Part shown: positions 2 through 2,073 of the stretch, piece by piece
Layout of the letters: each line of letters begins with the position of its first letter
Position numbering within the stretch: position 1 is the stretch's first letter
DNA from: Escherichia phage vB_Eco_ORH_001
Reading direction: 5' to 3' (one strand)
DNA: 44,456 bases
Sequence record: PV656001.1
The notes under the pieces: model-generated
The model's database searches: none
What the model saw: the letters and a program-made list of their open reading frames with translations, nothing else
Told to the model about the DNA's origin: nothing
Position numbers and translations under genes: made by a program

Positions 2-1792
2 GCGCTGATTCAGCGTTTCTCTAAACCGACACCGAAGAACTACAAAATCCGCCGTTACACCGCCGAAACGCACCCGGACGAGTGGGCGCTGTTCATCAAG
101 TACGCCGTGAGCGACATCACTGCGATGCGTGAAGTCTTCCATAAGCTGCCGCGTTGGGGTAACTCTGAGTTCGAGGACCGTGTACTTGAACTGGACCAGT
201 TGATCAATGACCGTGGGTTTAAGGTTGACGTTGCACTGGCAGAAGCCGCGATTGAAGCCGTGGAGAAACACAAAGCACAGTTACAGGAAGAAGCCCAACG
301 CAAATACGGCGGCTCGCTTACTGGTAAAGACTTTCTACCAATTTTGCGTGAACTCGCACCAGCACACCGCATCCACAACGCACAGAAGTCGACGCTTAAC
401 GACCTGTTGGCGGACGATGATTTACCGGACGATGCTCGCACGATTATCGAAATGCGCCTCGGGGCCGCATCCACCGCGTCAACGAAATATAACCCATTGC
501 TGTTGGGCCGCTCATCGGACGACCGCCGCCGGGGTTGCTTGCAGTACGGTGGGGCAAAACGTACTCTGCGATGGGCGGGTAAAGGCTTCCAGCCGCAGAA
601 CCTGGCACGCGGTTACTATCACGATGATGAGCTGGATAAAGGCATTTCGGCGTTACTTAAGGGCCGCGCCCATCGCCGTTTCGATGTAGCCAAGCTAACG
701 GCATCGACGGTTCGTAGCTGCATTATCCCGGAAGTCGGACATAAGTTTGTTGTTGCCGATTACTCTAACGTTGAAGGCCGGGGGCTTGCGTGGCTGGCGG
801 GCGAAGAAACCGCGCTTGATACGTTCCGCGCCGGACTGGATATTTATTGCGTAACCGCGGGTAAGATGTTTGGCATGGACCCAGATGATATTAAGAAAAA
901 CTTCAAGGAAATCAGACAGATAGGTAAGGCTTGCGAGCTTGGCCTCGGCTATGAAGGCGGTGTCGGCGCGTTCGTTACGTTCGCTAAAAACTTAGGCCTC
1001 GACCTTATTGAGATGGCTAAAACAATGGACGGTACTTTCCCTGATCATATATGGGCCGCTACTGCACGTGGTTATGAATGGGCGCGTATCCAGGAAGCAA
1101 AGCGACCGCCGCATCCCGGTGAAAAGGATGACAGACCATCATATATTCTGGACAAGAAAGTGTGGCGCACATGTGACGCAATCAAGCGTATGTGGCGCGA
1201 GTCACACCCTGAAACCGTAGCATTCTGGCGGGACCTCAAAGACGGTATTTTAGCCGCGGTAAGAAATCCGGGTCGTGAATTTTGGGCGGGGGCGCATCTG
1301 CGCAAGAATGGCGAGCGCGCTATCCGAATCTGGAGAACAGTAGAAACCGATTCATCCGGTAGGAAGGTTCCCGGTTGGTGGTTGTGTATGGAGTTGCCGT
1401 CGGGCCGTATCCTCTCGTATCCAGGAATCGGCGTTAGCGTGACAAAAGAAACAGACGAAGACGGACGGGTAAACACGAATGTGCGAATCAAGTATCAGGG
1501 GGAAAACCAGTTAACCCGCCAATGGACTACCCTGTACACCCACGGCGGTAAAGCCTGCGAAAACATTGTTCAGGCGCTGTGCCGTGATTTACTTGCGTAT
1601 GCGATGATTAACGTTGAAGGCGGCGGGTACCCCATCGTGCTTTCGGTACACGATGAACTGGTATGTGAAACTCCAGATACGCCGGATTACACGGTGCCTG
1701 AACTGGAAAAATTAATGTGTTCGCTGCCTGAGTGGGCGGAGGGTTTCCCTCTTGTGGCGGAAGGTGCGGAGATGAAGCGTTATGCTAAGTAA
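2..1792 (+). CDS. DNA polymerase I-family protein, C-terminal polymerase part (5' part is at 44047..44456)
   Basis: Frame is open from position 2 (ALIQRFSKPT...); motif B-like RQIGKACELGLGYEGG and motif C-like LSVHDELVCE; stop TAA at 1790-1792. Confidence 0.85.
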   Translation, partial: ALIQRFSKPTPKNYKIRRYTAETHPDEWALFIKYAVSDITAMREVFHKLPRWGNSEFEDRVLELDQLINDRGFKVDVALAEAAIEAVEKHKAQLQEEAQRKYGGSLTGKDFLPILRELAPAHRIHNAQKSTLNDLLADDDLPDDARTIIEMRLGAASTASTKYNPLLLGRSSDDRRRGCLQYGGAKRTLRWAGKGFQPQNLARGYYHDDELDKGISALLKGRAHRRFDVAKLTASTVRSCIIPEVGHKFVVADYSNVEGRGLAWLAGEETALDTFRAGLDIYCVTAGKMFGMDPDDIKKNFKEIRQIGKACELGLGYEGGVGAFVTFAKNLGLDLIEMAKTMDGTFPDHIWAATARGYEWARIQEAKRPPHPGEKDDRPSYILDKKVWRTCDAIKRMWRESHPETVAFWRDLKDGILAAVRNPGREFWAGAHLRKNGERAIRIWRTVETDSSGRKVPGWWLCMELPSGRILSYPGIGVSVTKETDEDGRVNTNVRIKYQGENQLTRQWTTLYTHGGKACENIVQALCRDLLAYAMINVEGGGYPIVLSVHDELVCETPDTPDYTVPELEKLMCSLPEWAEGFPLVAEGAEMKRYAK

Positions 1793-1913
1793 ACTGATTA
1801 TCGCGGTACTGGCGGGATTCGCCGCTGGTGTCTACTGTCACGAGGGCCAATACGGCATGATGGTTGCAGTATTAAGTATGTTCATCGCAATTTACCTGTG
1901 GGTGCTGGAATGA
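1782..1913 (+). CDS. small hydrophobic peptide (43 aa), hypothetical
   Basis: ATG overlaps the polymerase stop; translation MLSKLIIAVLAGFAAGVYCHEGQYGMMVAVLSMFIAIYLWVLE; stop overlaps the next ATG. Below the 60-aa ORF-track cutoff. Confidence 0.3.
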   Translation: MLSKLIIAVLAGFAAGVYCHEGQYGMMVAVLSMFIAIYLWVLE

Positions 1914-1999
1914 AAATTTACTGGTTCTACGAAGAAGACTGCCGAATCTGTCCGCGATGCGGGATTGAGCATACAAAACGGGAGGGGTGCGTATTATGA
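1910..1999 (+). CDS. small Cys-rich peptide (29 aa), zinc-ribbon-like, hypothetical
   Basis: Translation MKIYWFYEEDCRICPRCGIEHTKREGCVL (CxxCxxC...C); start and stop both overlap neighbouring ORFs in ATGA fashion. Confidence 0.25.
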   Translation: MKIYWFYEEDCRICPRCGIEHTKREGCVL

Positions 2000-2073
2000 C
2001 AATGCTTACCTTTATTATGGTAATCGTAGCCGTGTTTTTAGGTGTTGCCGTTTTGTGCAAGGTAACGGACTGA
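1996..2073 (+). CDS. small hydrophobic peptide (25 aa), hypothetical
   Basis: Translation MTMLTFIMVIVAVFLGVAVLCKVTD; stop TGA (2071-2073) overlaps the VRR-NUC ATG (2073). Confidence 0.2.
   Translation: MTMLTFIMVIVAVFLGVAVLCKVTD

Follow-up and report, generated by a model that had tools for sequence, protein, structure and literature searches.

The window analysed here is a stretch of 44,456 nucleotides (nt) from Escherichia phage vB_Eco_ORH_001 (PV656001.1), and its plus strand carries three small open reading frames (ORFs) in tandem between the gene of a family A DNA polymerase and that of a VRR-NUC type nuclease. ORF1 (43 amino acids, aa; MLSKLIIAVLAGFAAGVYCHEGQYGMMVAVLSMFIAIYLWVLE) runs from the ATG at 1782 to the TGA at 1911-1913, ORF2 (29 aa; MKIYWFYEEDCRICPRCGIEHTKREGCVL) from the ATG at 1910 to the TGA at 1997-1999, and ORF3 (25 aa, with one hydrophobic helix; MTMLTFIMVIVAVFLGVAVLCKVTD) from the ATG at 1996 to the TGA at 2071-2073. 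An earlier note on this DNA had placed the chain at 1782..1913, 1910..1999 and 1996..2073, followed by the nuclease gene at 2073, and every one of these coordinates is exact. The ORF1/ORF2 and ORF2/ORF3 junctions are both of the ATGA type, and ORF3 is joined to the nuclease start codon (ATG 2073) by TGATG. At the upstream side, ORF1 overlaps the end of the polymerase gene (TAA 1790-1792) by 11 nt, the final polymerase codons (…CGT TAT GCT AAG TAA) including the ORF1 start codon. Two of the three peptides are strongly hydrophobic, as had been proposed, with grand average of hydropathy (GRAVY) values of 1.46 for ORF1 and 2.12 for ORF3, the value for ORF2 being -0.43.

The 1-kb stretch around the small ORFs is 100% identical to that of Escherichia phage vB_Eco_Hrm2 (PV656002.1, 44,455 bp, from Kenyan sewage) and is matched at 80-95% DNA identity by 443 other Escherichia and Salmonella phage records, a Jersey-like group. 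These relatives belong to the subfamily Guernseyvirinae, genera Kagunavirus and Jerseyvirus, and Hrm2 itself is a Kagunavirus; the locus was not found in complete E. coli genomes. For the comparative analysis, we used 53 related loci from IMG/VR and GenBank, in which the frames were placed by tblastn, together with tblastn searches of 50,697 GenBank phage records. ORF2 is intact in all 53 loci, with a length of 29 or 32 aa, and occurs in 444 GenBank records (442 at full length), which equals the count of records with at least 80% DNA identity to the locus. The ORF1 frame is uninterrupted over its 43 codons in 46 of the 53 loci, with an ATG start in 45 and an ACG in the SETP3-type genome L050, and it was found in 223 GenBank records, in 221 of them at full length. 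The ratio of nonsynonymous to synonymous substitution rates (dN/dS, Nei-Gojobori) is 0.07 for ORF2 and 0.18 for ORF1, as against 1.16 and 2.64 for the other two frames of the ORF1 DNA. Control values are 0.08 for the polymerase C terminus and 0.13 for the nuclease, and alternative frames overall range from 1.16 to 3.17, with frequent stops. Furthermore, third positions predominate among the variable codon positions of ORF2 (third 19/24, first 8, second 6). ORF1 and ORF2 are thereby shown to be conserved coding sequences under purifying selection, which bears out the earlier proposal of genuine, same-direction, tightly coupled coding frames within a replication operon.

ORF2 corresponds to CDS0058 of PV656002.1 and matches phrog_38225 (E 2.5e-22), its residues 1-28 aligning with positions 5-32 of a 36-position profile. 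It is kept where ORF1 is deleted or frameshifted, and also where homing endonucleases separate its neighbours. As far as sequence comparison goes, it is shown to belong to the core genes of the subfamily, and none of the related genomes that we examined lacks it. No relatives of ORF2 were found outside this phage group, and a query made of concatenated ORF2 and ORF3 returned 16 clusters, all from the same group. Searches for relatives of ORF1 and ORF2 in Pfam, NCBIfam, PADLOC and PDB sequences likewise gave nothing significant.

The CxxC peptide to which the earlier note drew attention is ORF2, where an overlapping CxxC/CPxCG motif (C11, C14 and C17) is followed by H21 and C27. Among 45 unique sequences, C14 and C27 are invariant, C17 is present in 44, H21 in 43 and C11 in 40, with R or F in the remaining 5. 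The ligand set is probably C14-x2-C17-x3-H21-x5-C27 on a CPxCG knuckle, with C11 as a possible spare, and zinc binding is a reasonable inference from this arrangement. Every ORF2 variant seen keeps at least four of the five candidate ligands, a count that is not statistically meaningful since, by our own estimate, only about 0.4 double losses would be expected. Two rare variants (P0012 and P0013) are without C27, one through a C27R replacement and the other through a 1-nt deletion that changes the C terminus to …REGAYYE; both keep C11, C14, C17 and H21. Several points weigh against zinc binding. The motif is the one feature from which it is deduced, and, with P0012 and P0013 counted, no proposed ligand save C14 is invariant across all sequences. 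Moreover, the AlphaFold2 model of ORF2 is uninformative (pLDDT 57), and no significant match to a zinc-binding domain was obtained, the best E values being 0.22 in Pfam and 0.4 in PDB, with no match in NCBIfam.

The closest likeness is to the CPxCG knuckles of zinc ribbons and rubredoxins, such as those of cytochrome c oxidase subunit 5B, Nop10, RpoM and S27ae, with which ORF2 shares a strand-like aromatic stretch followed by CPRCG. The weak PDB matches of ORF2 are all to zinc-ribbon knuckles, for example FWLHKGEAQRCPRCG in cytochrome c oxidase subunit 5B (E of 0.4 or above). However, different from zinc ribbons, ORF2 has one canonical knuckle, its other putative ligands being a His and a lone Cys (CX2CX3HX5C), and at 29 aa it is shorter than any zinc-ribbon or CPxCG knuckle domain compared. 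Two other assignments were rejected. A ferredoxin-type 4Fe-4S site (CxxCxxCxxxCP) does not agree with the spacing of ORF2 (CxxCxxCx9C), where in addition the first Cys is not conserved; a retroviral CCHC knuckle (CX2CX4HX4C) differs from the CX2CX3HX5C spacing, and there was no zf-CCHC match at an E value of 1 or below. A separate observation concerns ORF2 codons 8-13 (1931-1948), where synonymous sites are nearly invariant (GAA 45/45, GAA 45/45, GAC 43/45, the rare Arg codon CGA 43/45 and ATC 45/45). Nearby codons vary freely, and no ribosome-binding site (RBS), promoter or RNA structure was found at this place.

ORF1, which is CDS0059 of PV656002.1, matches phrog_10404 over its whole length (E 2.4e-31, residues 1-43 on profile positions 1-43 of 43). 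In its AlphaFold2 model (pLDDT 86), helices at residues 2-21 and 23-42 are separated by a break at G22, and a conserved polar turn, YCHEGQYG, joins the two hydrophobic helices. From this model, ORF1 is predicted to form a helical membrane hairpin. Hydropathy gives hydrophobic cores of about 14 and about 17 residues, which are short for such a hairpin and count against it. A Foldseek comparison of the model with PDB yielded no significant match (E above 6), the best alignments being with membrane helical hairpins (Vtc1 and small complex I subunits). In an exhaustive HMMER search of 1.84 billion representatives, no ORF1 relatives appeared outside the phage group; the search returned the protein's own cluster, a frameshift fusion and a spurious repeat protein (P0018). 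MgrB, AcrZ and CydX are examples of what we take to be the same general kind of product as ORF1 and ORF3, namely, bacterial small membrane proteins of 50 aa or less. Like the small membrane proteins of that length collected in catalogues of small ORFs (PMC12648545, PMC11188072 and PMC11364881), ORF1 and ORF3 are short, have one or two hydrophobic helices and belong to a class frequently omitted from annotations. They differ from the bacterial proteins in being phage encoded and located in a replication operon, and no sequence or fold homology between the two sets was found.

ORF1 is missing from 7 of the 53 related loci, all of them Jerseyvirus-like, where the sequence reads ATG CTA AGT AAA CTG ATT ATA TAT TAT TTC …. 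The deletion joins MLSKLI, the first six ORF1 codons, in frame to IYYFREEDCRICPRCG…. In the SETP3-type genomes L048 and L050, where both genes are present, one copy of an 8-nt direct repeat, TGATTATC, falls on ORF1 codons 5-7 and a second copy on the start of ORF2; therefore, the loss of ORF1 would be a simple repeat-mediated deletion, after which ORF2 would still be translated from the ORF1 start. The fused 36-aa product is the called protein P0016 (8 member sequences on 7 contigs), and it is to this form that the 36-position profile of phrog_38225 corresponds. Other losses are frameshifts, and the database proteins P0004-P0009 and P0014 (68-73 aa) are ORF1 frameshifts that read on into ORF2. 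In two contigs that we inspected, the ORF1 lesions are a G-run expansion (L087) and one added G (L088), the neighbouring polymerase, HNH, nuclease and helicase genes being intact. Furthermore, in the Salmonella phages vB_SenS_ER13, vB_SenS_ER4 and vB_SenS_ER14 (MW355454, MW355468 and MW355455), ORF1 is shorter and diverged, with 69% identity, its residues 1-42 aligning over just 108 nt; this suggests an internal in-frame deletion.

The earlier note would have taken frameshifts or stops in relatives as evidence against coding, a check that ORF2 never fails and that goes against ORF1, which is frameshifted in a few assemblies, deleted in the seven loci and matched in 223 of the 444 ORF2-bearing records. 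We read ORF1 as an optional gene rather than as a non-gene because its dN/dS is 0.18 where it is present while it is lost from relatives. On the genomes compared, ORF1 is dispensable, and the pattern of losses shows, at the level of sequence, a dispensable gene and not a noncoding frame.

The part of the chain that follows ORF2 is of a different nature. We defined a slot, from the ORF2 stop to the start of the VRR-NUC gene, and classed its contents in the 53 related loci. The slot is empty, with ORF2 overlapping the nuclease start, in 19 loci; 17 contain a gene for a 50-aa two-helix membrane protein (phrog_14925), 3 a gene for a 63-aa soluble, Cys-containing protein (phrog_25645) and 5 the 63-aa and 50-aa genes together. 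A gene for an HNH homing endonuclease of 163-166 aa (phrog_99) fills the slot in 3 loci, and a decayed HNH remnant, as in phage Jersey, in 2. The 25-aa ORF3 is found in 2 loci (L012 and L054), besides the window itself, and a diverged 22-aa hydrophobic ORF occupies the place of ORF3 in one (L008). One locus, L052, with a 10-nt overlap and an interrupted nuclease frame, was left unclassed. The start codon of every slot occupant is part of the same ATGA, which overlaps the stop of ORF2; at its far end, the chain reaches or overlaps the start of the nuclease gene. Among them, the 50-aa gene has a dN/dS of 0.15 and occurs in 121 GenBank phages.

Homing endonucleases have left further traces around the chain. 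In phage Jersey (L004, KF148055.1), the 40-aa product Jersey_40 at 995-1117, annotated as a hypothetical protein, is the N-terminal fragment of an HNH endonuclease (MKAPSADIKDFLSY…) that is intact in Sciku and SETP3, and the C-terminal fragment (…RESLHRDFCNHG) comes next in another frame; this is a decayed homing endonuclease. Endonuclease genes have also entered at a second site, after the polymerase stop and before ORF1, where L013 carries a 235-aa Cys-rich HNH-type gene (1441-2148), L020 a 171-aa HNH gene (1765-2280) and L088 a 165-aa HNH gene (2502-2999). With HNH genes on both sides, ORF1 and ORF2 are flanked by two homing-endonuclease landing sites. Inteins annotated in the polymerase or the SNF2 helicase of several relatives (e.g., Sciku, vB_SenS-Ent2, LP31 and BPS11T2) are further evidence that the replication module is heavily colonised by mobile elements.

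ORF3 itself is rare. The 25-aa form was found in three GenBank phages (Hrm2, HSE2 and BUCT823) and in the two IMG/VR contigs mentioned above; it is unannotated in PV656002.1, is annotated nowhere among the records checked and has no PHROG match at an E value of 1 or below. The 22-aa peptide of L008 gave no tblastn hit in GenBank phages. With the phrog_14925 gene, ORF3 has in common the ATGA start, the first codons (ATG ACA ATG) and an end that abuts the nuclease start. In addition, an in-frame ORF3 stretch of 22 nt, which is short, is identical at 19 of 22 positions to the region of the second helix (FLGVAVL in one, FVGVAVL in the other), a DNA match score reached by 0 of 300 mononucleotide shuffles and 3 of 300 codon shuffles. 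ORF3 differs from the 50-aa gene in having half the length and one helix rather than two. These features indicate that ORF3 probably arose from the 50-aa gene through an internal deletion that kept the frame. One result points the other way. Against a profile of the unique 50-aa sequences, the ORF3 protein scores 3.1 bits, which 109 of 500 shuffles equal and which is not significant. Between the five alleles of 25 aa, we counted 2 synonymous and about 4 nonsynonymous changes. We regard ORF3 as a shortened version, rare and unannotated, of an optional gene for a membrane protein.

The chaining of the three frames had been judged improbable by chance, and our estimate is in line with that judgement, since about 0.7-1% of random or off-strand 292-nt windows contain a comparable chain. 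With a chain taken as no more than three ORFs of at least 20 aa each that tile the 292 nt with overlaps of up to 11 nt or gaps of up to 3 nt, it turned up in 153 of 20,000 random sequences of equal composition and, when a window was slid along the reverse strand, at 43 of 6,307 positions. Tight chaining is also the normal gene packing of this phage genome. In the annotation of PV656002.1, 12 of the 82 coding sequences (CDSs) are of 50 aa or less. Translationally coupled genes of phage and bacterial operons have the same ATGA and TGATG overlap types, weak downstream RBSs (here those of ORF2 and the VRR-NUC gene) and a conserved arrangement; compared to them, nothing in this chain is unusual, since 35 of the 75 same-strand junctions in that annotation overlap, 20 of them as the 4-nt ATGA type. 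The claim that all three frames are too small for the usual annotation cutoff applies to ORF3 alone; it is wrong for the other two, which are annotated CDSs in PV656002.1 and many relatives. In particular, ORF1 and ORF2 are recorded as "hypothetical protein" between polymerase and nuclease in Hrm2, fFiEco03, Sciku, Jersey and many others, and ORF2 is lacking from the annotation of HSE2, K1ind2 and many Jerseyvirus genomes. The three small frames are, in sum, genuine but ordinary phage gene packing, two of them filed in PHROGs and the third a rare short allele.

As regards expression, the duplex energies with the 3' end of 16S rRNA are -6.6 kcal/mol for ORF1, -3.7 for ORF2, -10.8 for ORF3 and -3.9 for the nuclease gene, against a background mean of -2.3 kcal/mol, with 2% of random 20-mers from the window reaching -8 or lower. 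The RBS of ORF1 is a GGAG at 1767-1770 on the plus strand, inside the polymerase gene. The strong one, GGGAGGGG (1980..1987, plus strand; in the top 2% or so), lies within ORF2 codons R24-E25-G26. Codon 25 is GAG in 45 of 45 sequences and codon 26 is GGG in 44 of 45, whereas the codons of the flanking R24 and C27 vary synonymously, which points to a dual constraint on codons 25-26. The same GGGAGGGG precedes whatever gene follows ORF2, i.e., ORF3 here and the VRR-NUC gene in empty-slot genomes. Three overlaps are kept in the related loci irrespective of what the slot contains, namely, that of 11 nt between polymerase and ORF1 (except where an HNH gene lies between them) and the ATGA junctions of ORF2 with ORF1 and with the slot gene. 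No promoter-like or terminator-like site was found on the plus strand within 1782-2073, and the region gave no Rfam match at an E value of 1 or below and a folding energy no better than that of shuffles (z = +0.83).

It is possible to combine these elements into a relay of ribosomes that would pass from the polymerase gene to ORF1, ORF2, ORF3 and finally the VRR-NUC nuclease gene. ORF1 would be initiated from the GGAG inside the polymerase gene, and ORF2 would be translated mainly by ribosomes that end ORF1 and restart at the ATGA overlap. The GGGAGGGG element would load ribosomes directly onto the slot gene, that is, ORF3 here and the nuclease gene when the slot is empty, and in the present arrangement the nuclease would be translated by reinitiation at TGATG after ORF3. 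Because their RBSs are weak, ORF2 and the nuclease gene are probably reliant on termination-reinitiation. Dependence on such a relay would explain the unbroken chain of frames in every slot variant, including those with deletions and endonuclease insertions.

As for the products, ORF1 would yield a two-helix hairpin inserted in the inner membrane, and ORF2 a soluble micro-protein that probably holds one zinc through C14, C17, H21 and C27, with C11 as a spare, and that is probably a small adaptor for a flanking replication or recombination protein. ORF3 would be a shortened single-helix remnant of a 50-aa accessory membrane gene, whose main remaining role is probably to maintain ribosome flow to the nuclease gene. 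We consider it likely, on the whole, that the locus comprises three small protein-coding genes in a rightward Kagunavirus replication/recombination operon, read as a relay with the products just proposed. Two circumstances tell against this account: the reinitiation coupling is inferred from the sequence alone, and a published Kagunavirus transcriptome, which annotates only 57 genes, does not resolve these ORFs (PMC12645636).

Different from the remnant just described, ORF3 could be a single-pass membrane micro-peptide with a function of its own and no mere translated spacer; it might alter the activity of a host membrane protein or keep out superinfecting phages. We hold this possible, although at clearly less than even weight. 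ORF3 has the strongest RBS of the chain, its frame is open in all five other genomes that have it, and the parent 50-aa gene is under purifying selection in many phages; moreover, the much diverged 22-aa ORF of L008 is still hydrophobic, shares the pattern LGxAxxx(K/R) with ORF3 and beats 499 of 500 shuffles against helix 1 of the 50-aa family. However, ORF3 is present in 3 of the 444 GenBank relatives, its allele changes are mostly nonsynonymous, and the slot is empty in so many of the related loci that nothing in it can be essential. Its retention might also have another explanation, in that a frame-breaking deletion could be unfit by uncoupling the nuclease gene. Small, very hydrophobic peptides are often membrane active, and ORF1 and ORF3, which fit that description with their two helices and one, might also, one or both, serve in lysis or as membrane toxins (a holin, an antiholin or a depolarising peptide) rather than as accessory proteins of the replication module. 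We find this distinctly unlikely because a complete lysis cassette lies about 30 kb away, with two holins and an endolysin at 483-1522 (lysis genes 483-1599) and spanins at 9139-9634 (record positions). Besides, neither peptide has a charged C-terminal tail (ORF1 ends in …LWVLE and ORF3 in …CKVTD), both sit in the replication operon, and half of the relatives do without ORF1 and, as isolated phages, show normal lysis.

For ORF2, the position of its frame deserves attention. ORF2 lies in the polymerase frame, which has no stop from 1793 to 1996 and, in 37 of 41 unique relatives, none across the ORF1 region. ORF2 might accordingly be no gene of its own but extend the C terminus of the polymerase, with ribosomes entering it through stop-codon readthrough or frameshifting. 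However, over the ORF1 region the polymerase frame lacks purifying selection, the proportion of nonsynonymous differences (pN, 0.121) exceeding that of synonymous ones (pS, 0.048), and four relatives carry stops in it. The polymerase stop is a TAA followed by A, which is a strong terminator context. In the Jerseyvirus deletion variants, ORF2 is in the frame of the ORF1 start and not in that of the polymerase, and in L013, L020 and L088 the HNH genes part the polymerase from ORF1-ORF2. The absence of selection, the different frame in the deletion variants and the intervening HNH genes rule out readthrough into ORF2, to which we give a very small likelihood. Even less probable, in our opinion, is that the conservation reflects a cis-acting nucleic-acid element (a structured RNA, a promoter or an origin), the frames being noncoding and their chain a product of chance. 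The unusually invariant synonymous positions of ORF2 (codons 8-10, 12-13, 23 and 25-26) could be cited in its favour, and a chance of about 1% for the chain is not negligible over a 44-kb genome. For ORF1 and ORF2, such an element is refuted by the codon-position pattern, in which third-position variation dominates ORF2; moreover, lengths and frames are preserved across hundreds of genomes, and the Rfam, folding and promoter/terminator searches reported above were negative. The relay of three small protein-coding genes is the reading that we retain.

With regard to the genomic setting, the gene order in the replication/recombination operon is helicase-primase, exonuclease, single-stranded DNA (ssDNA)-binding protein, family A polymerase, the small ORFs, VRR-NUC nuclease, a 63-aa ORF, cytosine methyltransferase and SNF2 helicase. 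The window is the reverse complement of PV656002.1, and its first base falls within the polymerase gene, whose 3' part occupies 1..1792 on the plus strand (annotated as DNA polymerase in PV656002.1). The nuclease gene (94 aa; 2073..2357, plus strand) is CDS0057 of PV656002.1, annotated as a Holliday junction resolvase; it matches phrog_93 (E 2.9e-33) and phrog_5702 (E 7.9e-20), and its Pfam VRR_NUC score is under the family cutoff (16.5 versus 23.8 bits). The conserved 63-aa ORF at 2388-2579 (phrog_4879, E 5.6e-46), between nuclease and methyltransferase, has an ATGA overlap with the latter. The best sigma-70-like promoter match in the first 5 kb (2326-2354, TTGACG-17-TATAGT, 10/12) falls in the VRR-NUC gene, at its 3' end, and precedes the 63-aa ORF; no other strong promoter-like site was seen, and the annotation of phage Jersey has a promoter at the equivalent place. 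On the minus strand, a 127-aa ORF with a GTG start (1872-2255) overlaps ORF2, ORF3 and most of the nuclease gene. We treated it as spurious, the codon-position pattern being in agreement with the plus-strand frames.

The finding matters little beyond annotation hygiene. ORF1 and ORF2 are already known as members of phrog_10404 and phrog_38225 and show nothing different from those families, and the public record lacks ORF3 (1996-2073), which is plausibly a translated micro-ORF. For small-gene evolution, the locus offers a clean natural experiment, in which an in-frame deletion between 8-nt repeats appears to have left the downstream micro-gene still expressed, and the slot has at least six alternative contents, all of which keep the frame relay into the nuclease gene. 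Modestly interesting is the universal retention of a 29-aa Cys/His micro-protein beside a minimal resolvase, with a cassette-like slot behind it. It is tempting to go further and see in ORF2 one of the smallest core genes of any phage subfamily, the product being a metal-binding micro-protein that either the polymerase or the minimal VRR-NUC resolvase next to it would need as a cofactor, and in the slot behind it a hot spot for the exchange of homing endonucleases and tiny membrane-protein genes, a proposal that we advance tentatively and consider unlikely. If ORF2 were indeed a metal-binding partner of the resolvase or the polymerase, it would provide a useful minimal model.

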